Shown here: piece by piece, positions 29,598-44,155 of the stretch
How the letters are laid out: the number at the start of each line of letters is the position of its first letter
Position numbering within the stretch: the stretch's first letter is position 1
Assembly: GCA_027451945.1 (NCBI GenBank)
Contig: DAIDHT010000014.1
Location: 29,628-93,627 of the forward strand
DNA length: 64,000 nucleotides
Reading direction: 5' to 3'
Origin: Spirochaetales bacterium
Lineage (GTDB): Bacteria > Spirochaetota > Spirochaetia > JABEVK01
Translations under genes and position numbers: made by a program
The notes under the pieces: model-generated
Seen by the model: only the letters and a program-made list of their open reading frames with translations
Databases searched by the model: none
Told to the model about the DNA's origin: nothing

Positions 29598-31049
29598 GTG
29601 GATTGGTCAAGGTTGAAGCGCGATAAACTGAAGAAAATCGATCAGAAACTGCTTTGGCACCCCTTTACCCAGCGCCAAGGGCTGGCAGAACCGCCTTTGA
29701 TCGTGCGGGGACGCGGCGTCAAACTCTACGACGATCAGGGCCGTTCCTATTACGATACCATAAGCTCGTGGTGGACCAATTTACACGGGCACGGACACCC
29801 TGCCCTCGTGCGTGCTGTAAAAAATCAAGCAAAACGCCTAGATCATGTCAATTTCTCGGGCTTTACGCATCCGGCTGCGCTTGAACTGACGGCGGCACTC
29901 TCCTCACGTCTCCCTGCAACACTAAACCGTTTTTTTTATTCGGACGACGGGTCGACGGCTGTTGAAGCGGCACTCAAAATGGCCTTTCAGTACCAGGTCA
30001 ACCGTGGCTTTTTGAACAAGACGCAGTTCGCCTATCTCGACGAGGGGTACCACGGCGACACCCTGGGGGCTGTGGGGGTCAGCGGCGTTGACGATTTTCA
30101 TGGAGTTTTTCGCCCCCTACGATTCTCGTCGTACCGCTTACCAGCGCCCCGAGCCCAAGCTTTGGGCAACAAAACCGGTAACCCTGTCACACTCACCTGC
30201 CCTGAAGACCTTTGGCAAACCACCGAAGCCTTGTTACGGCGGCAGGCAGCTGTCACAGCGGCGGTTATCGTCGAGCCGCTGATTCAGTGTGTTGCAGGGA
30301 TGCAACCCTACCCGGCCGATTACCTGCGCCGTCTAGGCCGTCTGTGTCGTGAACTGGACATTTTGGTCATCTACGACGAAGTGGCCACAGGCTTTGGTCG
30401 CACCGGCACGTTTTTCGCCCTCGATCAGGCGGGAACCGTCCCTGACTTTCTTTGCCTGGCCAAGGGCCTGTCCGGGGGAGTTTTGCCCTTGGCACTCACG
30501 ATAACGACAGCTGAAATTGAGCAGGCCTTCGAAGGCCCTGGCAAAACCTTTTTGCACGGCCACAGCTTTACCGCCAACCCCATAGCCTGTGCCTCGGCTC
30601 TGGCCAGCCTAAAGCTCTTTGACCCAGGATTCTGGCGTTTAGGGGCGCTTGAAAGGGCCGCTCCGGTCAGCCAAGCCTTTCATGAGTCCTTAAAGAGCTG
30701 GCAACAACGCCCCGAGCTGGGGGATATTCGCTTTTTGGGGCATATTGGCGCCGTCGACCTGGTGAACCCTGAAACCGGAAAGCCCTGGCCGGCACCCCTC
30801 AAGGCCGGGCAACGAGCCTACCAATTATCCCTTGCGAAAGGGCTGGTTCTGCGCCCCTTGGGTGACACCCTGTATTGGTTCCTTCCCCTCTGCCTTACCC
30901 CGCGCGACCTCAAAGTAATCCTCAAACTCAGCGATGAAGTTCTTACCCAGACGACCCAACTCCTCGTGCAAGAACACCGTTTGCTACCTAGGGACGAGCT
31001 TTTACCAGACGGGCTTTTGCCAGGCAAACCCACCCCGAGAGATGTATGA
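29598..31049 (+). CDS. bioA: DAPA aminotransferase
   Basis: LWHPFTQ, SSWW, YHGDT, DEVATGFGRTG, AKGLSGG, HGHS. Start GTG 29598 or TTG 29613. Confidence 0.96.
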   Translation: MDWSRLKRDKLKKIDQKLLWHPFTQRQGLAEPPLIVRGRGVKLYDDQGRSYYDTISSWWTNLHGHGHPALVRAVKNQAKRLDHVNFSGFTHPAALELTAALSSRLPATLNRFFYSDDGSTAVEAALKMAFQYQVNRGFLNKTQFAYLDEGYHGDTLGAVGVSGVDDFHGVFRPLRFSSYRLPAPRAQALGNKTGNPVTLTCPEDLWQTTEALLRRQAAVTAAVIVEPLIQCVAGMQPYPADYLRRLGRLCRELDILVIYDEVATGFGRTGTFFALDQAGTVPDFLCLAKGLSGGVLPLALTITTAEIEQAFEGPGKTFLHGHSFTANPIACASALASLKLFDPGFWRLGALERAAPVSQAFHESLKSWQQRPELGDIRFLGHIGAVDLVNPETGKPWPAPLKAGQRAYQLSLAKGLVLRPLGDTLYWFLPLCLTPRDLKVILKLSDEVLTQTTQLLVQEHRLLPRDELLPDGLLPGKPTPRDV

Positions 31050-32248
31050 CCCCCGGCCTTTTTACCGTCCGTGACGCCCTGACGGACTGGCAAGCCGACC
31101 TAAGGCGGTTAAAAGACCAAGCCCGTTGGAGGCAGGTCCGCACACCGAGCGCCGCTCAAGGACCGTTTCTTTGGCAGGACGGACGCCGTTTGGTGAACTT
31201 TTCGGGTAACGACTACTTAGGCTTGGCAGGTGACACCCAGATTGCCCAACAGCTGTCGCGTCACCTTGATACTCTGGTTCAAAACCAAAGCCTGCCACTG
31301 TGGGGGTCAACGGCCAGCCGTCTGATGGCTGGGGCTTCTCCATGGCATGCCGAGCTCGAGTCCGCCCTAGCTACCCTGTACCCTGGACGTCAAACCTTGC
31401 TGTTCAACAGCGGCTGGCATGCCAATACGGCGCTGTTGGCAGCCCTTGCGGCCCCAGGGGATGCCATTTTTGCCGACCGGTTGATTCACGCCAGTCTGGT
31501 CGACGGTTGGCGCTTATCGGGGGCCCGTTTGCACCGCTACCATCACGGGGATGCCTCGCACCTCGAGAACCTGCTCAAACGCCACCGAGGTCAGTACAAA
31601 CGGGCGTTTGTGGTCACTGAATCGCTGTTTTCAATGGACGGCGACGAAGCCGACCTCGCCGCCCTTGTTGAGCTAAAAAATCGGTACGAGGCCTTTTTAG
31701 TCGTAGATGAGGCCCATGCCTTTGGCGTGCTGGGACCTGGGGGAGCCGGGGTGGCCGCCCGGGACGGTCTGAGCGGTCAAGTAGACCTTGTGGTGGGAAC
31801 CTTTGGCAAAGCTCTTGCCTCGGTGGGGGCGTTTGTCGCGGCAGACCCGGTTGTGATCGAAGTTTTGCTTCAAAAAAGCCGCCCGCTCATTTTTAGCACA
31901 GCCCTGCCCCCGGCCTGTGCCGTTGTGACGTTGTTTCACCTTTCGCTCGAACCCGAGCTGGCCAGCCGCCGCGCTGTGCTGGCAAGCCTCGCCCGAGAGT
32001 TTCATGCCCAAGCACAGACCCATGGGTGGACGATTCCAGGGCACAGCTGGATTGCCCCCATAGTTCTGGGCATCGACGCGCGTGCCGTGCAGGCGGCAAA
32101 CCGTTGTGTCGAAGCGGGTCTGAGCGTTCTACCTATCCGCCCCCCCACCGTTCCCGAGGGCAGTGCGCGCCTGCGACTTTCGCTTCGTGCAGACATGACA
32201 CCCGACCTGTGGGCGCCCTTGTGGGCAACTCTGGAAGGTTTGTCATGA
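31046..32248 (+). CDS. bioF: 8-amino-7-oxononanoate synthase
   Basis: NDYLGL, HASL, FSMDG, DEAH, TFGKA, IRPPTVP. Confidence 0.96.
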   Translation: MTPGLFTVRDALTDWQADLRRLKDQARWRQVRTPSAAQGPFLWQDGRRLVNFSGNDYLGLAGDTQIAQQLSRHLDTLVQNQSLPLWGSTASRLMAGASPWHAELESALATLYPGRQTLLFNSGWHANTALLAALAAPGDAIFADRLIHASLVDGWRLSGARLHRYHHGDASHLENLLKRHRGQYKRAFVVTESLFSMDGDEADLAALVELKNRYEAFLVVDEAHAFGVLGPGGAGVAARDGLSGQVDLVVGTFGKALASVGAFVAADPVVIEVLLQKSRPLIFSTALPPACAVVTLFHLSLEPELASRRAVLASLAREFHAQAQTHGWTIPGHSWIAPIVLGIDARAVQAANRCVEAGLSVLPIRPPTVPEGSARLRLSLRADMTPDLWAPLWATLEGLS

Positions 32249-32955
32249 ACCTGCAATGGGTCGTTTCAGGCCCCCCCGGGGGAAGGCTTATTCTGGTGTT
32301 CAACGGTTTTGCGATGGATGAAAACCCCTGGCACCTTTGGCCAGAGCCCCAGGCGAGTTCTTTAGCCTTCGTCAGCGGGTACCAAAAGCTTTTCGAGCCC
32401 CTCGAAGCCGCCGAGCTAGCCCGACTAAGGTCCTTCAGCCGCGTGGATGTGATAGCCTGGTCGTTGGGGGTCTGGGTTTATAGCACCGTAGCCTCTGCGT
32501 GGGCCTTACCCCCAGGACAGCGCGTGGCTGTCAACGGAACCCTCAATCCTCTCCACGCCCAGTGGGGCATTCCCCCGGCGATCTTCGCGCTCACCCGCAA
32601 AACTTTTAGCGCCGAAACCCGTGAAACGTTTTATCGCCGTGTTTGTGGGTCGGACGAGGTTTGGGCTCTGTTTCAGCGGCATGCCCCCCAGCGTTTGGCC
32701 GAAGACCAAGCGGTCGAACTCGCTGTTTTACACGAGGCTCTTCAAAACACAGCGTCCTTTGTTCCACCTGAACAGTCGAGACAGCTTTTTTCGTCGGTAG
32801 TCATCGGCACCAAAGACCTCATCATGCCCCCCGCCGCTCAACGACGGTTCTGGCAAGGGGGCCGAGAAGTCGATGCTGGGCATTTTGTTTTTCACCTTTG
32901 GCCGACTTGGGAGGCTTTTTTGGCCGTCCCCGAGGATTCTGTTCATGCCGTATGA
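32245..32955 (+). CDS. bioG: Pimeloyl-ACP methyl ester esterase, BioG/DUF452 family
   Basis: ATGA overlap with bioF; LILVFNGFAMD, nucleophile AWSLG, VNGT, GIP; sits between bioF and bioC. Confidence 0.82.
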   Translation: MNLQWVVSGPPGGRLILVFNGFAMDENPWHLWPEPQASSLAFVSGYQKLFEPLEAAELARLRSFSRVDVIAWSLGVWVYSTVASAWALPPGQRVAVNGTLNPLHAQWGIPPAIFALTRKTFSAETRETFYRRVCGSDEVWALFQRHAPQRLAEDQAVELAVLHEALQNTASFVPPEQSRQLFSSVVIGTKDLIMPPAAQRRFWQGGREVDAGHFVFHLWPTWEAFLAVPEDSVHAV

Positions 32956-33691
32956 TGCGGCCTGGCATTTTCGGCGGGCCCAGGACAGCTACGAACAAGC
33001 GGCGCAGATTCAGGTCTCGATGGCGACGAGGTTGGTCAGTGCCCTCCGGCAGGTTGCTGGGCACCAGCGCTGGGCCAAAGTTTTCGAAATCGGTTGTGGA
33101 GCCTTAACCCTCACCAAGCGCCTTAAAGCCGAGTTTGAGCTTGATCAGCTGTGGTTGAACGATCTATGGCGCCCCGAGGCCCAACTCCTTGACCTACTTT
33201 CCGTCCCCGAGCTGCACTTTCTTGAGGGTGACGCCGAGCATCTGCCCTGGCCCAACAATTGCTCCTTGATCGCCGGCAACGCCGTCGTTCAGTGGTTTCA
33301 ACAACCAACCGGTGTGCTCGAAAAAGCTCATGCCTCGTTGAGCCCTTCGGGGGTGCTCGCCTTGGGGCTGTTTTTACCGGGGACCTTTGCCGAGTTCCAG
33401 CAGGCCAGCGGGCGTGGCTTGCCCTACCCGTCGCCCGAAGCGTGGCAGGCTGCCCTAGCGCCGGGCCACTGGCACGAACTTTACAGCCACGTTGAGTCAA
33501 CCACCCTGGTCTTTTCTAGCGCCCGTCAGTTATGGCGACACCTGCGCGAAACCGGCGTCGGAGGCACAACCCGTGAGGTCTGGACGCGTACTCGCTGGGA
33601 ACACTTTTTGCAAACCTACCCCCGCGACGCCGAAGGTCAGTGGCCGCTAACCTATCGTTCTTGGCTCTGGCTTCTAAGGAGGAATCCATGA
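32945..33691 (+). CDS. bioC: Malonyl-ACP O-methyltransferase
   Basis: FRRAQDSYEQAAQIQ, EIGCG, GDAE, VQW, HLRETGV, LTY. Confidence 0.92.
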   Translation: MPYDAAWHFRRAQDSYEQAAQIQVSMATRLVSALRQVAGHQRWAKVFEIGCGALTLTKRLKAEFELDQLWLNDLWRPEAQLLDLLSVPELHFLEGDAEHLPWPNNCSLIAGNAVVQWFQQPTGVLEKAHASLSPSGVLALGLFLPGTFAEFQQASGRGLPYPSPEAWQAALAPGHWHELYSHVESTTLVFSSARQLWRHLRETGVGGTTREVWTRTRWEHFLQTYPRDAEGQWPLTYRSWLWLLRRNP

Positions 33692-34440
33692 TCGTTTTTG
33701 TCACAGGTATAGACACTGACGTGGGCAAAACTTGGATCACCGGAAAACTGTTAGGAACGCTTCGTCACACGGTGAACGCCGGTTCTATGAAGCTCGTACA
33801 AACCGGACAAGAACGTGGCCCCGGCCCCGAGGGGGTTTCGCAGGATCTTCGTGAGCACCGCCGCCTGGCGGGCATGAACTTGCTGTCTGAAGACCTCGAG
33901 GGCCTTACTTGCCCGTGGATTTTTCGGGAACCAGCCTCACCCCACTGGGCCGCTCAAAAAGAAGGGCACCTCTTAAAAGAAGAGACGCTAGCAAATGCGG
34001 CCTCCTTGCTCGAAGAACGCTTTCCGTTGGTGCTCTGCGAAGGAGCCGGTGGCATCCTGGTCCCCTTGGCGCCAGGGTTGTCTACCTTAGATTTTGTGGC
34101 ACGACGAGGTTGGCCTGTCCTGGTCGTCACCACGCCCCGGCTGGGTAGTATCAACCATACCTTGCTGACCATCGAAGCGGTCAAAGCCCGAGGGCTGGCC
34201 TTGGCGGTGATTGTGAACCGCTGTGACGCCTGGGGCGAGAGCCTGAGAGCCAGCCTGCTGAGCACCTTGGCAGAACTTCAAAGCCAGGGTCGTGTGATTG
34301 AAATTCCTGAGTCGGCACCCGGTGAAGCGGGCCCTCGTGATTCGGACACCAACGAGGGGTTCTCCGCTCTAGCCCAAGTCGTGCTAAACCTCTGCTCAAG
34401 ACCAGGCGGCCTTGACTCGCGCCGAAAAGGCCTCTTGTAA
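33688..34440 (+). CDS. bioD: Dethiobiotin synthase
   Basis: FVTGIDTDVGKT, KLVQTG, PASPH, EGAGG, LGSINHT; AGGAGG SD. Confidence 0.95.
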   Translation: MIVFVTGIDTDVGKTWITGKLLGTLRHTVNAGSMKLVQTGQERGPGPEGVSQDLREHRRLAGMNLLSEDLEGLTCPWIFREPASPHWAAQKEGHLLKEETLANAASLLEERFPLVLCEGAGGILVPLAPGLSTLDFVARRGWPVLVVTTPRLGSINHTLLTIEAVKARGLALAVIVNRCDAWGESLRASLLSTLAELQSQGRVIEIPESAPGEAGPRDSDTNEGFSALAQVVLNLCSRPGGLDSRRKGLL

Positions 34441-34860
34441 AGCCTTGAGCTGTGTTTTCTCGGTAGCCGAGGGTAGTGTAAGGTTTCCTTCTAAGTGCCC
34501 CTGAGCTAAGGTTTGCCCACTAGAGGTCATCACCCGGTAGACCAACGAAGTCAAGGTCAGGTCTTTGTCTCCCGCTTTCCAAATAAGGTGGAACCAAACC
34601 ACCCGGTCAGCCCCATAGGTTTTAGCCAACCCTTTGAGACGAACAGTATCGCCTTGAGAGTCCGTCGCATCGTCCAGCAAATCAAAGGCCACCTCACCTT
34701 GATTGAATAAATCGTCAAACACTGTTTCTACCAAAGCACTCTCGACCTGAGGGTGAAGGTCTGTGGCAGGCAACTCTTGCGAGTGGCAGACCAACACGGT
34801 TTCGGCGGAGACGGCGCCTCCCAAAACCCCCAAAAATACCAGTACAGCCCAAAAACGCAT
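34396..34860 (-). CDS. Hypothetical exported protein
   Basis: AGGAGG SD before ATG 34860; signal peptide ending AVSA. Confidence 0.75.
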   Translation of the reverse strand: MRFWAVLVFLGVLGGAVSAETVLVCHSQELPATDLHPQVESALVETVFDDLFNQGEVAFDLLDDATDSQGDTVRLKGLAKTYGADRVVWFHLIWKAGDKDLTLTSLVYRVMTSSGQTLAQGHLEGNLTLPSATEKTQLKALQEAFSARVKAAWS

Positions 34861-34916
34861 AAGCACCTCCTTTGTCAGTTTCGGCACCCTCACCCGCCAA
34901 ACTGAATTTTCCTTGA

Positions 34917-34945
34917 TTGAAGCAGAAATCGAATCATGGTAGACT
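34917..34945 (+). promoter_or_regulatory. Promoter TTGAAG-N17-TAGACT with extended TG, probably leaderless
   Basis: -10 ends 6 nt before GTG 34952; no SD. Confidence 0.65.
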
Positions 34946-34951
34946 TTAGGC

Positions 34952-35542
34952 GTGAACTTTTACGTGATTAGGGTTAAACCCCGTGGTGAAAAATCTTTTG
35001 CCCAGCTTTGTCAAAAGCTCATCCCCGATGAACTTAAGGTTCACTTCCCCCGGCGGCGGTTAACAGAACGAAAACAAGGGGTCGTTAAAAAAGTCGAGTC
35101 ACCTCTGTTTCCCGGGTATGTTTTTGTAGAGATGCAAGACGCGATTACCCCAGAGATGTACTACCGCCTCAAAAAGGTTCCTGGGTTCTTTCACATTTTG
35201 AAACCCAGCGGTGAGTTACAAGAACTCAAGGGTCACGACCTAGAACTGGTGAAACACTTTTTGAAGTTCGGACAGGTCATGGAGGCCTCAAAGGTCATTT
35301 TTGACGAAAACCAACGTATCCGGGTCTTAAGTGGTCCCATGTCGGGCCTGGAAGGAAAAATCGTTTCGGTCGATCGCCGCAAGGGTCGCGCCAAGATAGT
35401 TCTCGATTTCGATCGCAATCAATTTACCATTAACCTGGCTTTTGAAGTTCTCGAAGCCGCGGCTGAGGCTCCTGTTGGCCCCTCCGGCCCTGTTGGCCAA
35501 TCAGCTTCTACCGCACCGACCCCTCAGGGAAATGCGTCATGA
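34952..35542 (+). CDS. loaP: NusG paralogue antiterminator (LoaP/UpxY type)
   Basis: NGN domain (FPRRRL..., PLFPGYVFV) and KOW domain (VLSGPMSGLEGKIVSVDRRKGRAKI); first gene of an operon. Confidence 0.82.
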   Translation: MNFYVIRVKPRGEKSFAQLCQKLIPDELKVHFPRRRLTERKQGVVKKVESPLFPGYVFVEMQDAITPEMYYRLKKVPGFFHILKPSGELQELKGHDLELVKHFLKFGQVMEASKVIFDENQRIRVLSGPMSGLEGKIVSVDRRKGRAKIVLDFDRNQFTINLAFEVLEAAAEAPVGPSGPVGQSASTAPTPQGNAS

Positions 35543-37011
35543 GCTCCCGTCGGTTGGTAATCATAGGCGCAGGCTTTGCGGGGCGGGCGCTAGCACGCGA
35601 AATCCGTGAGCGCTTTCCCGACCGAAGTCTCGAAGCGTTTTGGGACGATGACCCGGCAAAGATCGGTTCCTTGTTGGACGGTGTTCCTGTTTTTGGTCCT
35701 ATTTCAGCCCTGCAAACCCGTGAACCGGTCCCTGACGAAGCCATTCTCGCCATCCCCAGTGCCACCAAAGGCCAACTCAAACAAATTTACAACGCTGTTG
35801 TGCAGACAGGCATCCCTCGTATTCGAATTTTACCAGCTATCAGTCAAATCGTGGACGGCGAGGCGCATTTTGTTCTGACTCGAGATATCGATCCCCAAGA
35901 CCTTTTAGGTCGCAATCCGGTGCAGATTTCGCTTCGTCAAAGTCTGCGCTACCTTAGGGGCAAGCGGGTCTTGATTACCGGCGCTGGCGGCAGTATCGGA
36001 AGCGAGCTAGCCCGTCAGCTTTTGTCAGGGGGGGCCGAACGCCTCTACCTCTTGGGACACGGTGAAAACGCCATCTACCAAATCGATAAAGAACTGCGTC
36101 TTCTTCAAGCGGGGGGAGTTGGCGAGAAAGCCACCATCGTCCCCATCGTCGCCGATCTTAAGGACGCCCACCACCTGCAGTTTCTTTTGTCACGCCTCAA
36201 GGCTGATGTGGTGTTTCACGCGGCCGCCCACAAACACGTTCCCATGATGGAAGCCAACCCTGTAGAGGCCTGCGCCAATAACGTCTTGGGAACAAAAAAC
36301 CTCTTGGAGGCTTGCCTTGAGCATCAGGTGAAAAAGTTTGTGCTGATTTCTACCGATAAAGCGGTGCTGCCGCACTCAGTCTATGGGGTGACGAAAAAGA
36401 TCAGCGAAGATTTGGTGCTTGAGGCCGGTCTGCGAGGGCAAGGTCAGTATATGACTGTCCGCTTTGGCAATGTGCTCGGTTCCCGAGGGAGTATTGTTCC
36501 TCTCTTTCGTGAACAAATTCTGGCTGGCGGACCTGTCACCATAACCGACCCAGCCGCCTCCCGGTACTTCATGACCATTCCTGAGGCTGTGAGCTTGGTG
36601 CTCCAAACAGGAGGAATGGGCCAGGCGGGTCAGCTCTACCTTTTAGACATGGGTGAGCCCATTCTGATCGAAGATCTAGCGGCGCAAATTATACGATTTT
36701 ATGGCAACGAACCGGGCAAAGATATTGCTATTCAGTACATTGGCCTGCGCCCCGGCGAACGGCTCGAAGAACGGCTTTTTGCCCCCGACGAAGAACCTGT
36801 CCCCACGGCGTATGCAAGGATCAACCGTTTGGTTCGTGCACCCGGCTCGGAGATCTCACCACACCGGCTTGACGAGTTGCTACTCAAGCTAAAACCGGTT
36901 TGTGTTTACCACCCCGACACGGCAGGACAATACCGAAACAGGCGGGTTTTACGCGAGATTCTCCGCGAGTTTTACCCTACCCTGGAGGCCAAGAATGAAC
37001 CCGAGTTCTAA
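35539..37011 (+). CDS. NDP-sugar 4,6-dehydratase (CapD/PglF-like, no TM domain)
   Basis: IIGAG, DLLGR, TGAGGSIG, HAAAHKHVP, STDKAV, VRFGNVLGSRGS, RYFMTI, GLRPGE. Confidence 0.93.
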   Translation: MSSRRLVIIGAGFAGRALAREIRERFPDRSLEAFWDDDPAKIGSLLDGVPVFGPISALQTREPVPDEAILAIPSATKGQLKQIYNAVVQTGIPRIRILPAISQIVDGEAHFVLTRDIDPQDLLGRNPVQISLRQSLRYLRGKRVLITGAGGSIGSELARQLLSGGAERLYLLGHGENAIYQIDKELRLLQAGGVGEKATIVPIVADLKDAHHLQFLLSRLKADVVFHAAAHKHVPMMEANPVEACANNVLGTKNLLEACLEHQVKKFVLISTDKAVLPHSVYGVTKKISEDLVLEAGLRGQGQYMTVRFGNVLGSRGSIVPLFREQILAGGPVTITDPAASRYFMTIPEAVSLVLQTGGMGQAGQLYLLDMGEPILIEDLAAQIIRFYGNEPGKDIAIQYIGLRPGERLEERLFAPDEEPVPTAYARINRLVRAPGSEISPHRLDELLLKLKPVCVYHPDTAGQYRNRRVLREILREFYPTLEAKNEPEF

Positions 37012-38191
37012 GGTCACCAGCGTTCCCTTCTCGCGTCCTGTTCTTGGTCCCGAAGAGGAACAAGCGGTCGTAGAGGTTTTGAGGTCCGGTTGGCTTACCA
37101 CGGGCCCGCAGGCTCAGGCCTTTGAAACTGAGTTTGCCGACTACGCCGGAACCAAGTTTGCGCTTGCCGTCAACAGCGCGACGGCAGGCCTGCATTTAGC
37201 CCTCGAAGCGCTTGGAGTTGGCCCCGGGGATGTCTGTGCTGTTCCCGATTACACCTTTACAGCAACAGCAGAAGTTGTCCGGTACCAGGGCGCCGACCCG
37301 GCATTTTTAGATTGTTCGCCCGAAAGCCCGAATTTTGACCCCCAACGACTCGAAGATCTTTTAAAAAAACAGCGCGTTAAGGTGGTGCTTCCCGTGCATT
37401 TGACAGGTGAGCCCTTTGACAGCGAGGCCTTGTCTTTTCTTCAAAACCGTTACGGTTTTGCCGTTGTTGAAGATGCCGCACACATGATTCCCTCGCGACG
37501 TCCCGACGGCCGTTTGTGGGGAGCCGGAAGTGAGGTTGGTGTGTTTTCTTTTTATGCTAACAAGAATATGACCACCGGCGAAGGGGGGATGATTGTCACG
37601 GACAACGAAGCCTGGGCCCACCGTATGCGCCGTATGCGACTCCATGGCATCGACCGGGATGCCTTTGACCGCTTTACCTCGCGGCGGGGCTCTTGGGAGT
37701 ATCAAATTGTCGCTCCCGGCTTTAAGTACAACATGACTGATGTTGCGGCGGCGATTGGCCGTGTCCAGTTGACCAAAGCCCAAGCTTTTTGGACGGCACG
37801 CCAACGATTGGTTCAACGCTACCGCGAAGGTTTGGCGTCCTGCCACTCTTTAGAGTTACCAAGCTGGCGCGAGGATCATGCCTGGCATGTCTTCAGTCCG
37901 TTGCTGGCACCCGCCGTGTCCGCTTGGCGGGACCGCTTTGTTCAAGAATTAACGCAACGAGGCGTTGGCATCTCGGTGCACTACACTCCCCTTCATCGCA
38001 TGCAATATTGGCGCGAAACTTATGGGCTTAGCTCTGAGGCGTTTCCCCACTCAGCATCACGCGGCGAAAGAACATTTTCGCTTCCCCTTTTCCCTTCGAT
38101 GACCGAAGCCCAGCAAGAGTTTGTCCTTGATGCGGTTATACAAGTTCATCAGCAGATGAGCCAGGAGGTCGACTCTGGCCACTCGCCGTAA
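36995..38191 (+). CDS. DegT/DnrJ/EryC1/StrS sugar aminotransferase
   Basis: SGWLTTGP, NSATAGLH, EDAAH, SFYANKNMTTGEGG, GFKYNM; GGAGG SD before ATG 36995. Confidence 0.95.
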   Translation: MNPSSKVTSVPFSRPVLGPEEEQAVVEVLRSGWLTTGPQAQAFETEFADYAGTKFALAVNSATAGLHLALEALGVGPGDVCAVPDYTFTATAEVVRYQGADPAFLDCSPESPNFDPQRLEDLLKKQRVKVVLPVHLTGEPFDSEALSFLQNRYGFAVVEDAAHMIPSRRPDGRLWGAGSEVGVFSFYANKNMTTGEGGMIVTDNEAWAHRMRRMRLHGIDRDAFDRFTSRRGSWEYQIVAPGFKYNMTDVAAAIGRVQLTKAQAFWTARQRLVQRYREGLASCHSLELPSWREDHAWHVFSPLLAPAVSAWRDRFVQELTQRGVGISVHYTPLHRMQYWRETYGLSSEAFPHSASRGERTFSLPLFPSMTEAQQEFVLDAVIQVHQQMSQEVDSGHSP

Positions 38192-40301
38192 GACGTCATC
38201 AGACCCCATTCGCGACCCTCTCTTTCACCCCGATCCCCGGCTTTTCGAGACTCCACCGGGAATGCTTTTTGGCTTAACCCTTCGTTCGCCGGTCGCGCAT
38301 GGCAAGCTTTTGGCTATGGTTCACCCCCCGCTTCCCGAGGGCTTTACGCTTTTGCGGGCTGAAGATCTTCCGGGAAGCGATGTTCTACACGTGCTAAAAA
38401 GCCGTCTGCCTCTGCTCAACGGTGATCTCATACGCTATGTTGGTGAACCGATTGCTTTGGTGTCAGGACCAAATGAAACTTTGGTGCGCTCCTGGGCCAA
38501 AAAGGTACGCTTTTTATTTCAGAAACCGACTCTGGACCAATATAGCCAGGGTATACGGCTCAAATCGCGGTCGCTGGCAGGGGGGCACTACATCCCTGAT
38601 GACCAAAACGTGCGCCTCATCGAGGGGGTCTACTCGACAGGGGCTCAAGATGCCGGGGTATTTGATGCCTGCGAAGCTACTGCCCTTGTTCAGAACGACG
38701 AGGCCTGGCTGAGCGTCAAAAGCCAATGGCCAGGAAATGTGGTTCACAGTGTCGCCCGCGCCTTGGGGCTCGAAGCGAACAAGGTGAAGGTCAAAGCGCG
38801 GCCGTCGTCAGCCCACCTCAATAGTCAAGTTTGGTTTCCGACAGTGCTTGCCGTCCACGCCGCCCTGTTGTCGCAAGCTAGTGGGCATCCGGTCAGAATG
38901 ACGCTGAGCAAGGACGAAGAGTTTTTCTATTCGCCCAAGCGACCAGAGTCCCGAATTCTCCTCCGCTCAACCGTTGACGCCCAAGGCCGCATTCTCGACT
39001 TCTCGGCAGACGCCGTGCTCAATGTTGGTGCTTATGGTGTCCTCGAAGAGGAATTGCTTGATCGCTGTATCCTGGGCCTCTTGACGCCTTACCGTTTTGG
39101 GGCGTTCCAAGCCAATGCTCATGCCGAGCTGAGCCACACTCCTCCTCGTGGTCCCGTAGGGGGCATGGGAGAAAACCTAGGAACGTTTGCGCTGGAAAGC
39201 CACGTTCAAGATATCTGCGAGGCTCTCGAGCTGGACCCCCTTGCCTGGCGAAAGGATAACGCACTGGGCCGTGATCAAATCGCTTTTACGGGCGAAGCGT
39301 GGAAAGCAGATGCCCCCTTAACAGCGCTCGTTTCTGAGCTAGGCAAAGCGTCAGATTTTGGGCGCAAATATGCTAGCTTTCATCAACTGAATTCGCGAAC
39401 GCAAGAATGGCGAGATGAAGCTCTCCCCTTAAGAGGCATAGGGCTGGCTACGGGTTTTCAAGGAAACGGCTTTTTAGCCGGGGGAACTTCTACGGTGAAT
39501 CTCGAGATACGGCTTGAGACAGATTCCAGCTTGAGTATCTTCTCCCCCTTGGTAACCGCCAACGAACACTTAGAAGCTCTTTGGAAACACGCGCTTGGCG
39601 ACCCCCTTGGTATTCCCCCTGAACAGGTTCGCATTTGTCCTGTTCTGACCGGGGAACATCCTACCGGCGGCCCGTCGCTGGCATCACGCTCTTTCGAAAT
39701 CTTACCGAAATTATTAGCCAAAGCTGGACATACGCTGGCTCAGCGACGAGCTCATCAGCCCTTGCCTTTGCATCTTCATACCCTCTTCAGGCGCAAGGCC
39801 AACCCGGCCTGGGACCCAGAGAACTTTACCGGTCAGCCCTTCTTATCGTTGTCGTGGGTCGGGGCGGTAGCCGAAGTGGAAGTTCTTCCCCTACTTTCAG
39901 AAATTCGTATTAAAAAAATCACAGTGATGGCGGATGCCGGGCCCCTGATGGACGAAACCTCTGCCCGAGATGCGATTACTGAGGGTGTTTTGTCAGCGGT
40001 GGGCTGGGTGTTTTCTGAGAACATCTTTTGGGAGAAACTCACCATCCCTCGGTCGATCTTTCAAAAATATCGACTACCCAGTGTGCGTGAGGTTCCTCGC
40101 CTAGAAATTCTATTTTTTCAGAATCCTAAGGGGAGCTCACCACGCGGCTTAGGGTCCCTAGGAAGCAGTGCAACAGCTCCAGCGCTCTTATCAGCGATTC
40201 GACAGGCTCTGGCACCCAGCTGGAGGCATTTACCAGTGACGAGAAAAATGTTAGACGAGGCTTTGAGAAAACATGAAGCAGAACTTGATCCTGAACGGTG
40301 A
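38175..40301 (+). CDS. Degenerate xanthine-dehydrogenase-family large (molybdopterin) subunit
   Basis: GML..LRSPVAHG, IRYVGEPIALV, GHPVRM, FALES, LDPLAWR; Moco and catalytic motifs altered. Probable CTG start 38175 (AGGAGG); ORF-track start ATG 38262. Confidence 0.85.
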   Translation: MATRRKTSSDPIRDPLFHPDPRLFETPPGMLFGLTLRSPVAHGKLLAMVHPPLPEGFTLLRAEDLPGSDVLHVLKSRLPLLNGDLIRYVGEPIALVSGPNETLVRSWAKKVRFLFQKPTLDQYSQGIRLKSRSLAGGHYIPDDQNVRLIEGVYSTGAQDAGVFDACEATALVQNDEAWLSVKSQWPGNVVHSVARALGLEANKVKVKARPSSAHLNSQVWFPTVLAVHAALLSQASGHPVRMTLSKDEEFFYSPKRPESRILLRSTVDAQGRILDFSADAVLNVGAYGVLEEELLDRCILGLLTPYRFGAFQANAHAELSHTPPRGPVGGMGENLGTFALESHVQDICEALELDPLAWRKDNALGRDQIAFTGEAWKADAPLTALVSELGKASDFGRKYASFHQLNSRTQEWRDEALPLRGIGLATGFQGNGFLAGGTSTVNLEIRLETDSSLSIFSPLVTANEHLEALWKHALGDPLGIPPEQVRICPVLTGEHPTGGPSLASRSFEILPKLLAKAGHTLAQRRAHQPLPLHLHTLFRRKANPAWDPENFTGQPFLSLSWVGAVAEVEVLPLLSEIRIKKITVMADAGPLMDETSARDAITEGVLSAVGWVFSENIFWEKLTIPRSIFQKYRLPSVREVPRLEILFFQNPKGSSPRGLGSLGSSATAPALLSAIRQALAPSWRHLPVTRKMLDEALRKHEAELDPER

Positions 40302-40755
40302 GGACGTAAGCCTCAAGGGCGAAGATGAAGACTCTCTTTTTGCCGTTCTAAAAGCAGAAACCAAACTTTTTTCGGGCATCATCTGTTGTCAGAAGGGTTT
40401 CTGCGGCCGCTGTCATGTACTCTTAGAGGGCCGCGAAGTTCCCTCGTGTTTGGTGCCATTTTATCAGGCTCGCCAGCGAGAAGTCGTGACCCCCGAAGGC
40501 TTCGCTGCCACCGAGGAACACCGGATTTTTCGCCAGCTTCTCGATGAGGAGGGGCTGGTGTTTTGCCACCAATGTACCGAAGCTCAAATCTTTCACCTGA
40601 GTGCCTACCTCGAACAGTTCCCCGCCCCCGAAGAAGAAGAATTGCGAACCGCGATTTCTGAGATACCCTGCCGTTGTGGTAGCCGTCCTGTTCTCGAACG
40701 TGCCGTACGCCGACTGGCCGCCCTCAAGGAGTCCGACCGTGCCGGACGAAGATAA
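40273..40755 (+). CDS. CoxS/XdhC-like 2x[2Fe-2S] subunit
   Basis: CQKGFCGRC..SC and CHQC..CRC. Confidence 0.88.
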   Translation: MKQNLILNGEDVSLKGEDEDSLFAVLKAETKLFSGIICCQKGFCGRCHVLLEGREVPSCLVPFYQARQREVVTPEGFAATEEHRIFRQLLDEEGLVFCHQCTEAQIFHLSAYLEQFPAPEEEELRTAISEIPCRCGSRPVLERAVRRLAALKESDRAGRR

Positions 40756-41599
40756 CCTCCCACCCCTGGTTCATACGCCAAAAACTCTAACTGAAGCTTT
40801 GGCGCTACTTAACGCCTATCCGAAAGCCCAGCTGTGGGCAGGCGGCACTGCCAGTCCCGAACAAGATTTTAGTTCACCGATCCGTCTACCGACTACCGTG
40901 GTGTCGTTGCACCTTGTCGAAGACCTGAAGCGGGTGCAGTACGGAGACAGGTTTGTTGATTTAGGGGCGGGAATGACGCTGAACCAAGTTTTGCATGTCA
41001 TGAAAGCCTTTCTCAACCCGGCGCTCCGTCAAGCGATTTTAGCTACTGGCTACACGGCGTTGCGAAACTTAGCAACCTTAGGGGGGAACCTCTGTCAAAA
41101 AGGATTCTTTGGCGATCTGTTCCCTGTCCTGCACCTCATTGGTGCGCAATTTGAGTTTCGTGGTCTTAGGTCAGCAAGGTGGCTCACCTCGACACAGGTT
41201 TCTGATGAAGGTAGGCTTACCCCCCTTGCCGGAGAAATCCTCACACGAGTCCGCATTCCCCAAGAGGATTGGCCGCATTTCTTTTATCAAAAAATTGGGA
41301 ACTTTCGCACGCCTTGGGATGAGCGTCTTTCGATGACAGCGTTGGCGCGTACAAAACATGGCCTCGTGGAAGCACTCCGCTTAATTTTTTACCTTCCCCA
41401 CACCGGTCTTTTGCGCCATCGAGGTCTCGAAGCTGAATTCGTTGGCCAACGGGTACCTTTTGCCCCCCGTTTACGTCAAGAAGCCTTAAAAAGCATTCAG
41501 GAGGCGATGCAGGAACTATCGTTACCTCCCAGCCTTTTTCAAAAGGATCGTGTCCTTCACATGACCCGTTGGGTGCTTTCGCAAATTCAAGACGATTAA
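40739..41599 (+). CDS. CoxM/XdhB-like FAD-binding subunit
   Basis: PKTLTEAL, AGGT, RNLATLGGNL, GEILTRVRIP; GTG 40739 after AAGGAG. Confidence 0.88.
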   Translation: MPDEDNLPPLVHTPKTLTEALALLNAYPKAQLWAGGTASPEQDFSSPIRLPTTVVSLHLVEDLKRVQYGDRFVDLGAGMTLNQVLHVMKAFLNPALRQAILATGYTALRNLATLGGNLCQKGFFGDLFPVLHLIGAQFEFRGLRSARWLTSTQVSDEGRLTPLAGEILTRVRIPQEDWPHFFYQKIGNFRTPWDERLSMTALARTKHGLVEALRLIFYLPHTGLLRHRGLEAEFVGQRVPFAPRLRQEALKSIQEAMQELSLPPSLFQKDRVLHMTRWVLSQIQDD

Positions 41600-41632
41600 G
41601 CCTCAAACGGACAAAATTTGCTCGAAGAGAGT

Positions 41633-42583
41633 TCAGGTTTTGAAGGGGCCGCCAGGTCGCCCCGAGCCTAGGCGAGACCGGGCTTCGGCTATCGCTTGCT
41701 TCCACAGTCGCGACACCATCACATTCAACTTTTCTTGCCTCTGTACAAAAAACGACAGCGACCGGTGAAAAATGCGCAGGGCGGCCAAAACATCGGGTTT
41801 AAGAGTATTTCTTGAGGCGCCATAACCAAAGTTTTCGATGGGACGCAGGAACTTCCAGTGACCAGCGTTATGGATAATAGGAATAACTTGTCCAGAATCT
41901 TGCAGATAAAAAACGCCCTCGCGGAGGTTAAAGGCCCTTTCAGCCGAGGCCAAAACAAAATTGTATTCGGGTGGCAAAGGATCATACCCACGCTCATGCG
42001 CATACAAGTTCACCACCACTTGGTCAGGACCAAATTTGGTTTTATTGATGATCAGGTTGTCCATCCAGGACGCCAGCTCATGAAAGACCGCGGGGGGCCC
42101 TGCCAGAACTCCCGCATTGAGCAGTGGTTTTAACGCTGTACTTTCACGGATACGTCGAAGAACGGGGCGGCTAAAAAACTCCTCTGCTAAGAAAAACTCT
42201 GATCCCGATTTTGCGTCTTCGGCCGCTGCACGGAGCCTGAGCCCCGGCGTCAACAACTCAGAAAAGTCCGACTGAAAAATAAGATCCCCAGAATCACATA
42301 AAACTGCCAGCTCGGCTTTTTGCCGGGCTAAATCCGTCGACAGGTCACGAAACCGAGCCTGGGTGACATGGATATCTTTACGGCAAGGGATTACCCCTAC
42401 CCCTTTATGTTCAAGATAAAATCGCTGGGCTAAGGACAACCCGTAGTCTAAAACCCGAACAGAAAGTCCTTCAGGTCGATGATCCAGCAAAGACGGCAAC
42501 CAATGTTCAATAAGAAAATCTCCGTACTTACGATCAGAGGCGGTATATAAAAGCCTTTGTCCTCGTTCCACTGCCCCGCTCAC
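41633..42583 (-). CDS. GT-A fold (GT8-like) glycosyltransferase
   Basis: CDSGDLIFQ, LNAGVLAG, DQVVVN, YNF, IIHNAG; GTGA overlap with the NUDIX stop. Confidence 0.7.
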   Translation of the reverse strand: MSGAVERGQRLLYTASDRKYGDFLIEHWLPSLLDHRPEGLSVRVLDYGLSLAQRFYLEHKGVGVIPCRKDIHVTQARFRDLSTDLARQKAELAVLCDSGDLIFQSDFSELLTPGLRLRAAAEDAKSGSEFFLAEEFFSRPVLRRIRESTALKPLLNAGVLAGPPAVFHELASWMDNLIINKTKFGPDQVVVNLYAHERGYDPLPPEYNFVLASAERAFNLREGVFYLQDSGQVIPIIHNAGHWKFLRPIENFGYGASRNTLKPDVLAALRIFHRSLSFFVQRQEKLNVMVSRLWKQAIAEARSRLGSGRPGGPFKT

Positions 42584-43143
42584 TTCAAACCGTATGTGTA
42601 CCGCTCCCACCAGAAAAGAGCCAGGCTCATGATACCGTGACTTTCGTTTCCGCTAAGACTACGGCGAACCTCTGGTATTGGGATGATTCCCACCGTCAGA
42701 TGCTCGTTCGGATCAAGTTCTAACTCCTGATGGACGTGATGAGCGCCACGGGCCAAAAACGTCCACACACGGTTTGTTAAAAAAGCGGGATTAGAATTGC
42801 AATTCCCTAACAGGACAAGCTCGTCAGCCTCAAAGCCAGTTTCTTCGCGGAGTTCTCGTTGCGCCGCTTGCCACGGTTCTTCGTTGGCGTCGACCATACC
42901 CCCTGGAAATTCCCAATACAGTTGGCCATCGCCGTGACGAAATTGCCGTACCATCAAAAAACAGTCGTTGTCTTTGTCGCGTACTTCGGTTATCACATTG
43001 ACCCAATCGGGAGCCTTGGCTACCACAAACGACGCTTGATGGCCGTCAGGCGTCGTACTATGCCTTCTCACCAAATCAAAAATGGGTGTTTTGATCAGGG
43101 TTTCTTCGGACTTAACGTGAAAAATTAGGTGTTCATCATTCAT
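42580..43143 (-). CDS. NUDIX hydrolase (ADP-ribose pyrophosphatase-like)
   Basis: VRQFR, EFPGG, Nudix box GMVDANEEPWQAAQRELREETG. Confidence 0.93.
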   Translation of the reverse strand: MNDEHLIFHVKSEETLIKTPIFDLVRRHSTTPDGHQASFVVAKAPDWVNVITEVRDKDNDCFLMVRQFRHGDGQLYWEFPGGMVDANEEPWQAAQRELREETGFEADELVLLGNCNSNPAFLTNRVWTFLARGAHHVHQELELDPNEHLTVGIIPIPEVRRSLSGNESHGIMSLALFWWERYTYGLK

Positions 43144-43150
43144 GGCTTAC

Positions 43151-44155
43151 CTACTTTGGCGTTGTTACGGGACCAGGGGGTGCCGGTTGTGGAACAACAC
43201 GAACCAGGGGGATATTATCGCGATCGGGAAGGGGTGCAGGAGGCCCTTCTTGCGGTGCTTCTAGGTATTTGGGTATACCCCAGAGAATCAAAAGGCGCCC
43301 TTCTCTCAGAAGACGACGATTGGCAGGCAATGAAAGAATGCGGTCCCAGTCCGAGTCAGCTAAAATAAGGTCATTCGGTCGTTCACCCCAAACTCCTCGG
43401 GCTACAATCCGCAAAGGATCAAGACCGATACGGTCCTGAAAACGTCGTTCATTAAATCGGCTCTGTTGAAAGGCGGCGGTACCCCATTTTGCCAAATACG
43501 AAGGATCCATTTGGCTTCGATCAAAAAGCGTCTGCCCCTCTTCATCCATAAAACGGGGCGATAAGGAAGGTTCCCAGCGAATTGAGGTTCCTGTACCGCG
43601 CCAGGGCAAGGGGCTCATGGCATAAATCACTATGCCAGAAAAGGGTCGACTGGGGTTCCACCCCAAAAGTCTTTTAAGAGGATTGGGTTGTTCGACAGGG
43701 GGTAAAAGCTGGGCCAAGTCCTTCCATAGGCCTAAAGACCAACGCATGGTCAAGACCTGACCTGAAGCGTCCAAGCGTGAAAAAACAAATTTAAGTTCGC
43801 TATTCAGCTGATCGACTACTGATCCCAGTTCCGGATTTTGTTTCAAGGCCTCGGCCACGGACTCGGTTGAGTTGAGCCGAACAGGCATCAAGCGCCTCAG
43901 GAGTTCCTGACGACGATGATCTTCAAGATACTGCTCGGCTTGATACTGCTGACGCGGCGCGACCGCGTCGGGATCGGTGGTGGGCACCACCGACAAAGGG
44001 CAACTGAGGGTCAACTCCCAACGGCCTTCTCCCCAGAGAAACTTCGCCGAAGAGGAAATTTGATCCGACTGTGCCCACGCCCCCGCGGGGATTCCACCCA
44101 GCAGGAGCACCGACAACGCCAGCTGAACCAGCCGACGCCAGGCATCACCGAGCAA
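43151..44155 (-). CDS. Hypothetical exported protein
   Basis: Signal peptide ending AWA; overlaps the upstream gene stop. Confidence 0.75.
   Translation of the reverse strand: MLGDAWRRLVQLALSVLLLGGIPAGAWAQSDQISSSAKFLWGEGRWELTLSCPLSVVPTTDPDAVAPRQQYQAEQYLEDHRRQELLRRLMPVRLNSTESVAEALKQNPELGSVVDQLNSELKFVFSRLDASGQVLTMRWSLGLWKDLAQLLPPVEQPNPLKRLLGWNPSRPFSGIVIYAMSPLPWRGTGTSIRWEPSLSPRFMDEEGQTLFDRSQMDPSYLAKWGTAAFQQSRFNERRFQDRIGLDPLRIVARGVWGERPNDLILADSDWDRILSLPANRRLLREGRLLILWGIPKYLEAPQEGPPAPLPDRDNIPLVRVVPQPAPPGPVTTPK

Follow-up and report, generated by a model that had tools for sequence, protein, structure and literature searches.

What does a complex of the xanthine dehydrogenase (XDH) family do once the site for its molybdenum cofactor (Moco) appears to be gone and its genes sit in an operon for amino-sugar synthesis? 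The question is raised by a 64,000-nucleotide stretch of the genome of a Spirochaetales bacterium (assembly GCA_027451945.1, contig DAIDHT010000014.1, forward-strand positions 29,628 to 93,627; hereafter the window, in whose own numbering window coordinates are given). At 34952-41599 on its plus strand, the open reading frame (ORF) list together with Pfam and NCBIfam matches places six head-to-tail ORFs in one tightly overlapping operon, encoding a LoaP-type NusG paralogue, a nucleotide-sugar dehydratase, a DegT-family aminotransferase, and the large (L), small (S) and flavin adenine dinucleotide (FAD)-binding (M) subunits of an XDH-like complex. Xanthine-oxidase-family enzymes are textbook molybdoenzymes. 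Our analysis supports the view that an XDH architecture lacking molybdenum has become a fixed part of an amino-sugar operon conserved across Spirochaetia, with support both for a "Moco-less" L and for the linkage to sugar genes, and from these we propose a role for the complex in the pathway of its operon partners.

The molybdenum site of the large subunit

We aligned L with Rhodobacter capsulatus XdhB (phmmer, nearly whole length) and with motif-intact relatives from a protein search, and read the computed alignments at the stretches that contact Moco in solved XDH-family structures. Of six Moco-contact motifs the window's L has five replaced, along with the catalytic Glu, and only the Gln of GGQEH remains. 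Compared to motif-intact references, xxxGGxFGGKE has become RPSSAHLNSQVW (PSSAHLNSQVW, aligned with RRMGGGFGGKE of R. capsulatus XdhB), xAFRGFGxPQ has become GPVGGMGENLG with replacement of the Arg of FRGFG, E(M/V)GQG has become VTANEH, SxTxAS has become GGPSLASRS, xxxGQIEGG has become SARDAITEG, and the catalytic-Glu motif KGxGE has become RGLGS. The Moco-contact motifs are likewise replaced in the 54 members of the clade described below and intact in canonical references; the catalytic Glu is more variable, with RGLGS in the window but GE kept in some clade members. The same motif losses are seen in each of the 33 closest database relatives (P0004-P0036, E <= 1e-71), and 18 more distant tabulated relatives (P0037-P0052, P0060, P0072) keep every motif. 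The best reading of these alignments is that L has lost the ability to bind the molybdenum cofactor.

The large-subunit fold of the family, a hammerhead and two MoCoBD domains, has been kept in L. An AlphaFold2 model built from a 19-sequence alignment reached a pLDDT of 83 and a pTM of 0.86, and matched R. capsulatus XdhB (1jro_B) over the whole chain in Foldseek (TMq 0.86). Its lowest-confidence blocks include three former Moco loops, at residues 211-220, 321-330 and 491-510, together with 121-130 and 431-440 elsewhere. PF01315 was undetected in the window's L and detected in the L of relatives, and the best NCBIfam matches of L, S and M, to PucCDE of the Bacillus subtilis type, fell far under their cut-offs (for example, 153 versus 784 bits for pucD). 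Clade-specific conserved residues of L are W185, W220, E293, D394/R397/K398, W470, R525, P531 and E567.

The electron-transfer subunits retain their signatures. The window's S has a Cys in each of the eight ligand columns, with FCHQC in place of QCGFC, and M retains the AGGT (AGGTAS) and RNLATLGGN FAD motifs; S and M are accordingly predicted to bind two [2Fe-2S] clusters and FAD. Across the clade, 43 of 50 S subunits carry all eight Cys, compared to 18 of 18 in the canonical clade, and the xATxGGN motif is retained in nearly all M subunits. The window's complex has in common with the XDH family, as represented by R. capsulatus XdhAB (1jro), an architecture of L, an S with two [2Fe-2S] clusters and an FAD-bearing M, along with Pfam domains, Cys ligands, FAD motifs and fold. 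It differs in that the family keeps GGxFGGK, the Arg of FRGFG, E(M)GQG, GQIEGG and the catalytic Glu, whereas the window's L has all of these replaced. A preliminary description of this DNA, made from the letters alone, had drawn the picture of a Moco-less L from SSAHLNSQ at the GGGFGxK loop and RGLGS at the catalytic KGxGE, and had noted an S that keeps the Cys of both clusters with FCHQC for QCGxC and an M in which the FAD motifs remain; both L strings are present in the translation, and the alignments agree with the description on each of these points.

A degenerate clade, its sugar genes and the Moco pathway

We sampled relatives of L in two sets of genomes. A search of 301 genomes of the phylum gave L matches in 85, and 20-kb stretches from 40 of these (one per genus for 30 other matching genera, plus ten more) comprised 20 loci with the degenerate form of L and 20 with the canonical form, two of the latter partial. 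In a second search, 98 of 121 genomes of the class had a match, and the best 29 loci, drawn from 29 further genomes in many families, were all degenerate. In a FastTree phylogeny (LG+gamma, 91 sequences, 696 columns), all 54 degenerate L sequences fell into a single clade (SH-like support 0.943), whose sister group is the spirochaete clade of canonical L with motifs intact. Within the window's subclade the replacement motifs show conservation of their own, for example as SSGTANSQVW, GPVGGLGEGLG and RGLG(S/T)LG, and the clade-specific motifs are conserved among 22 relatives of 42-95% identity. A search for relative loci with the window's L (P0001) returned two close loci only, both from metagenome-assembled genomes, and the same search with a Treponema pallidum-type L as query returned no relative.

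Reading frames are intact in all 50 degenerate-clade loci. Measured against the locus L009, whose L is 94% identical, the ratio of nonsynonymous to synonymous substitution (dN/dS) was 0.057 for L, 0.051 for S and 0.039 for M, at dS values of 0.43-0.57, and 0.057 for the dehydratase and 0.093 for DegT. L, S and M are working genes under strong purifying selection.

We then read gene orders by tblastn with the window's proteins in 49 degenerate-clade genomes, the window's own excluded. The order dehydratase-DegT-L-S-M was present in 40 of the 49 loci (14 of 20 in the first sample and 26 of 29 in the second). Four loci had DegT-L-S-M (two from Treponema denticola-type genomes and two in which the upstream flank lies outside the covered stretch), one had dehydratase-L-S-M, three had LoaP-L-S-M, and one had L-S-M beside a different, divergent sugar cluster. 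Neither a dehydratase nor a DegT gene lay beside canonical L in any of 20 loci, five of these stretches being shorter than 11 kb. In 8 of the 20 degenerate loci with long flanks, the gene immediately before the cassette is a LoaP homologue, and beyond the block the neighbours vary by genome (RuvAB, QueA, DNA ligase, DnaE, transporters). The sugar-gene linkage, whose absence elsewhere would have spoken against the preliminary description, is conserved and specific to the degenerate clade. The canonical Spirochaetota operons (L057-L076) have the same L-S-M order and, unlike the window, every Moco motif, all eight Cys in every S scored, and no dehydratase or DegT alongside. In the early-branching degenerate-clade genome with the divergent cluster (L056, 2204-8590, minus strand, genome G296), L-S-M lies back to back with genes for DUF6056, a nucleotidyltransferase, a GDP-mannose-dehydratase-like short-chain dehydrogenase/reductase, a second-type DegT and a thiamine pyrophosphate enzyme.

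The five-gene order dehydratase-DegT-L-S-M is also found in the 1.14-Mb genome of T. pallidum (G102), as the preliminary description had suggested. Protein records for this genome read SpsC, "conserved hypothetical" (AAC65074.1), "quinoline 2-oxidoreductase" (O83119) and "xanthine dehydrogenase family protein subunit M".

We also compared the clade with the distribution of Moco synthesis. Only one MoCoBD_1 gene, the operon's L, is present in the window's genome (2.86 Mb, 41 contigs, 96% complete), which gave no match to MoaC, MoaE, MoeA_N, XdhC_CoxI or PF00384; its best match to the MoaA model scored 70 bits versus a cut-off of 284. The lack of an xdhC-type gene, first remarked on for the neighbourhood of the operon, extends to the whole genome by the XdhC_CoxI model, MocA not having been searched for as such. 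MoaC was absent from 17 of 20 first-sample and 8 of 29 second-sample degenerate-clade genomes, so that synteny set against Moco genes across Spirochaetota, a comparison that the preliminary description had proposed, finds the clade both with MoaC (24 of 49 carriers) and without it (25 of 49, including T. pallidum and T. denticola). Only about half of the carriers lack the Moco pathway, which speaks against the specific form in which the idea was put. Because the clade occurs in genomes with and without MoaC, loss of the Moco site is a property of the protein clade and not a by-product of genome reduction.

The closest comparison makes the same point. A genome of the same genus (G394), with an L 94% identical to the window's, carries a cluster of about 6 kb (L111, G394:C12 8427-14161) with moaA, moaC, mobB-mobA, moeA, moaD, moaE and a ThiF-family gene, followed by a gene of the dimethyl sulfoxide (DMSO) reductase family. 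The flank of this cluster aligns with the window's genome (contigs C34/C40) at 86-89% identity, and the cluster itself has no match there. Neither G394 nor G374 has a MoCoBD_1 gene other than the degenerate L. The same L is kept with and without Moco synthesis, as a Moco-independent function predicts.

Among canonical-clade genomes, 16 of 20 have MoaC. In one family of 38 genomes (f21), a canonical L homologue and MoaC co-occur in exactly the same 24, as expected of a true Moco enzyme. In another family (f29; L060, L061, L075), canonical L has every Moco motif intact and MoaC matched in 0 of 7 sampled genomes, a different kind of "orphan" from the degenerate clade.

Operon layout, gene starts and surroundings

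The gene content and order set out in the preliminary description, with dehydratase, DegT and CoxL/S/M-like genes overlapping in one operon, hold as claimed (Table 1), and the operon gains a first gene, since that description began at the dehydratase (35539..41599) and the LoaP gene lies ahead of it. The identity of LoaP is given by NF033641 (antiterm_LoaP), which scored 148.1 bits versus a cut-off of 125 in NCBIfam.

Table 1. Genes of the window's operon, with revised starts.
Feature	Coordinates	Strand	Evidence
LoaP-type NusG paralogue, putative processive antiterminator	34952..35542	+	First operon gene; NF033641; Pfam NusG and KOW
PglF-like long-form Polysacc_synt_2 nucleotide-sugar 4,6-dehydratase, 490 aa	35539..37011	+	PF02719, 2.7e-103
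DegT/DnrJ/EryC1-family pyridoxal phosphate (PLP) aminotransferase, 398 aa	36995..38191	+	PF01041, 1.2e-106
XDH-family large subunit (L) without Moco-contact motifs, 708 aa (most likely start)	38175..40301	+	MoCoBD_1, 111.5 bits; MoCoBD_2, 73.8 bits
Small subunit (S), ligands for two [2Fe-2S] clusters, 160 aa	40273..40755	+	Pfam Fer2_2
FAD-binding subunit (M), CoxM/XdhB type, 286 aa	40739..41599	+	FAD_binding_5, 1.1e-27, 97 bits

The ORF list, made mechanically, begins DegT and M too early and L too late. DegT likely starts at ATG 36995, preceded by GGAGG, and M at GTG 40739, which has AAGGAG 7 nt before it. For L, the likely start is CTG 38175, with AGGAGG 6-7 nt before it (the two together lie at 38163-38177); a start at ATG 38262 would instead give a protein of 679 aa. 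The 29 codons upstream of that ATG are kept as protein in the close relatives L008 and L009, of which L008 (7902-7916) has GTG at the upstream start position and no ATG downstream, and L009 (4852-4866) has CTG, as in the window. Because of these conserved codons, the relatives' start codons and the AGGAGG, L most likely starts at CTG 38175, which would give it the same length as the L of its relatives.

Given these starts, there are overlaps of 4 nt (LoaP/dehydratase), 17 nt (dehydratase/DegT), 17 nt (DegT/L), 29 nt (L/S) and 17 nt (S/M) at the five junctions, each of which has a Shine-Dalgarno sequence. The sequence fits a single LoaP-controlled operon whose six genes would be translationally coupled, as had been suggested for the sugar and redox genes. 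An Rfam scan of 33500-42500 gave no match at E <= 0.1, and promoter and terminator sites in a scan of 34300-42000 were no more numerous than in shuffled sequence.

Upstream lie a biotin operon and one opposite-strand ORF, and the downstream genes converge from the opposite strand, so that the six genes stand as one unit. The biotin synthesis operon (29598-34440, same strand, directly upstream) has overlapping frames of its own, encoding a class-III aminotransferase (BioA-like), a BioF-like protein, a BioG esterase, a methyltransferase (BioC-like) and a dethiobiotin synthetase-like AAA_26 protein. At 41633-44155 on the minus strand, a Nudix hydrolase gene lies between two ORFs of 325 and 334 aa, neither of them matched in Pfam or NCBIfam, that converge on the operon end. 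The stretch 34900-41700 is represented in six DNA runs from three studies (mine drainage, mine tailings and sediment metagenomes), two of which contain a small share of it only, and in no listed RNA run.

Candidate roles of the complex

Both sugar enzymes resemble known families without reaching a named function. The best solved relative of the dehydratase is Campylobacter jejuni PglF/WlaL (5bjy, 242 bits); it scored 345.6 bits for Polysacc_synt_2 and stayed below the NCBIfam cut-offs for PseB (161 versus 408 bits) and FnlA (138 versus 730 bits), and the N-terminal 140 or so residues lie outside the Polysacc_synt_2 match, with weak Rossmann-type Pfam matches only. DegT, whose best solved relative is ArnB (1mdo, 286 bits; Pfam 357 bits), was likewise below the equivalog cut-offs for PseC (336 versus 423.5 bits), ArnB (333 versus 631 bits) and RfbH (135 versus 423 bits). 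The families of PglF/PglE (bacillosamine synthesis) and ArnB are thus the nearest solved comparisons, with no equivalog cut-off reached. DegT keeps the PLP Lys (FSFYANKN, compared to FSFHAIKN in ArnB).

The window's genome contains one dehydratase gene and one DegT gene only, both in the operon, and one isolated NeuB-family gene; the dehydratase/DegT pair could feed a nonulosonic-acid pathway. NeuB co-occurrence is uninformative on this linkage, with matches in 116 of 121 genomes of the class, and Pfam found no acetyltransferase or glycosyltransferase in the operon. A T. denticola-type genome has a second PseB-like/DegT-like set elsewhere, and there the cassette may serve a different sugar. 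T. denticola flagellins are reported to carry an acylated nonulosonic acid required for filament assembly (PMC13439194).

We consider it about an even call that L-S-M is a Moco-independent FAD/Fe-S redox complex acting on, or for, the UDP-amino-sugar pathway of its operon partners. Judging from their families, the dehydratase would make a UDP-4-keto intermediate, which DegT would convert to UDP-4-amino-4,6-dideoxy-N-acetylhexosamine (HexNAc). L-S-M would form a heterotrimer with xanthine dehydrogenase/CO dehydrogenase architecture, belonging to a paralogous, Moco-independent clade that would have split from motif-intact spirochaete XDH-like enzymes and has since travelled with the two sugar genes. 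Electrons from NAD(P)H or another donor would pass through FAD and the 2Fe-2S clusters to the remodelled former Moco pocket of L, where the complex would act on, or for, an amino-sugar intermediate from its partners. The electron transfer, the sugar-nucleotide substrate and the identity of the glycan are what we infer here.

Several observations weigh against this proposal. The S of T. pallidum (L040, 11270-11737) has HNSY at the four N-terminal cluster Cys positions, that of Spirochaeta africana (L052, 11323-11802) has lost the ligands of both clusters, each in an intact gene, and five further S subunits (L047, L048, L079, L097, L098) deviate at the second cluster, so that an intact relay from FAD to L is not universal. 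The former Moco pocket holds no new constellation of polar or metal-binding residues that is conserved across the clade. The 1.5-Mb, 99% complete genome G145 has LoaP-L-S-M and a weak NeuB match, and neither a PglF-like nor a DegT gene was found in it at E <= 1e-30; these sugar enzymes are therefore not required for the complex to be present. The dehydratase of T. denticola-type genomes is found 9-40 kb from the cassette. Gene neighbourhood, moreover, is association and not chemistry.

Two other explanations strike us as unlikely, to about the same degree. According to one, L-S-M is a non-redox pseudoenzyme, a scaffold, chaperone or regulator of the sugar enzymes or of another LoaP-controlled process, with FAD and Fe-S kept mainly for folding. 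The loss of the Fe-S ligands of one cluster in T. pallidum and of both in Spirochaeta africana, with the genes intact, an old active site without a conserved polar constellation, and the strong divergence of L within Treponema (22-30% identity) would all suit such a role, but the retention of eight Cys in most S subunits and of a nearly invariant FAD motif would be costly if redox chemistry were irrelevant, and S and M have dN/dS values as low as those of the enzymes. The other holds that L-S-M does redox chemistry on a substrate outside the sugar pathway, and that the gene linkage reflects shared LoaP control or co-expression only. The three loci with LoaP-L-S-M and no sugar genes, G145, in which neither sugar gene was found at E <= 1e-30, and a DegT that is an ordinary Lys-bearing aminotransferase for which a reductase is unnecessary are consistent with this; however, the five-gene order with overlapping frames recurs in 40 of 49 genomes from many families while the surroundings differ, and the linkage is never seen in the 20 loci of the canonical sister clade.

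A more specific version of the sugar-pathway proposal seems to us improbable. It would have the vestigial cofactor pocket of L bind UDP-4-amino/4-keto-4,6-dideoxy-HexNAc and FAD/2Fe-2S electrons drive a sugar redox step of a kind not previously described (reductive deamination, deoxygenation or a C-N/C-O rearrangement, for example), the product being a spirochaete-specific sugar for flagellar or envelope glycans, including those of T. pallidum. The nearest precedent for Fe-S/flavin electrons in a nucleotide-sugar step is the E1/E3 pair (AscC/AscD) of 3,6-dideoxyhexose synthesis, in which 3-deoxygenation is carried out by a DegT-family enzyme served by an FAD and [2Fe-2S] reductase. In E1 the PLP Lys is replaced by His and the enzyme carries its own [2Fe-2S] cluster, and E3 belongs to a different fold family. 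The window's DegT differs in keeping the Lys, and is therefore an ordinary aminotransferase and not of the E1 type, which is a point against the specific form of the idea in the preliminary description, that the complex may supply electrons for sugar deoxygenation or reduction. We rejected an E1-type dehydrase with E1/E3 deoxygenation for DegT on the basis of this Lys and of the RfbH score.

That L-S-M is still a molybdenum or tungsten hydroxylase, using a scavenged or unusual pterin to oxidise purines or aldehydes as public annotation implies, is very improbable. A complete XDH large-subunit fold, the Gln kept from GGQEH and the MoaC of 24 of 49 carriers are in its favour, but L has lost the other five Moco-contact motifs along with the catalytic Glu, L proteins of 94% identity occur in genomes with and without a Moco island, 25 of 49 carriers have no MoaC, and no XdhC was found in the window's genome. 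We rejected decay of an XDH operon into pseudogenes after loss of Moco synthesis: despite the motif loss and the lineage-specific loss of Fe-S ligands, frames are intact in 50 of 50 loci, dN/dS is 0.04-0.06, clade-specific motifs are conserved among the 22 relatives (42-95% identity), and the genes are retained both in the 1.14-Mb genome of T. pallidum and in Moco-proficient genomes.

Full-text literature searches, whose coverage leaves out most subscription journals, found no paper on the cassette. The closest published comparison is with the "orphan molybdoproteins", mostly of the DMSO reductase and xanthine oxidase (XO) families, that Peng, Xu and Zhang (2018) described in organisms without a complete Moco pathway; that study reports no distinguishing sequence features and raises Mo-independent forms as an idea (PMC6147048). 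Like the window's L, these include XO-family homologues without a complete Moco pathway, and no gene context is named for them (PMC6147048). The window's clade differs in being defined by motif loss, monophyly and sugar linkage, and in occurring in Moco-proficient genomes as well. The degenerate clade is a concrete, motif-defined answer to what "orphan molybdoproteins" are.

Public records annotate L as "molybdopterin-binding" or "molybdopterin-dependent oxidoreductase", and such naming misleads metabolic reconstructions of these organisms. Few multi-gene blocks of unknown function are conserved in the minimal genome of T. pallidum, and the cassette is among them. For the family, a whole, old clade under selection that has given up the molybdenum site while retaining fold, flavin and Fe-S wire would clearly exemplify the re-use of a redox scaffold for another purpose.

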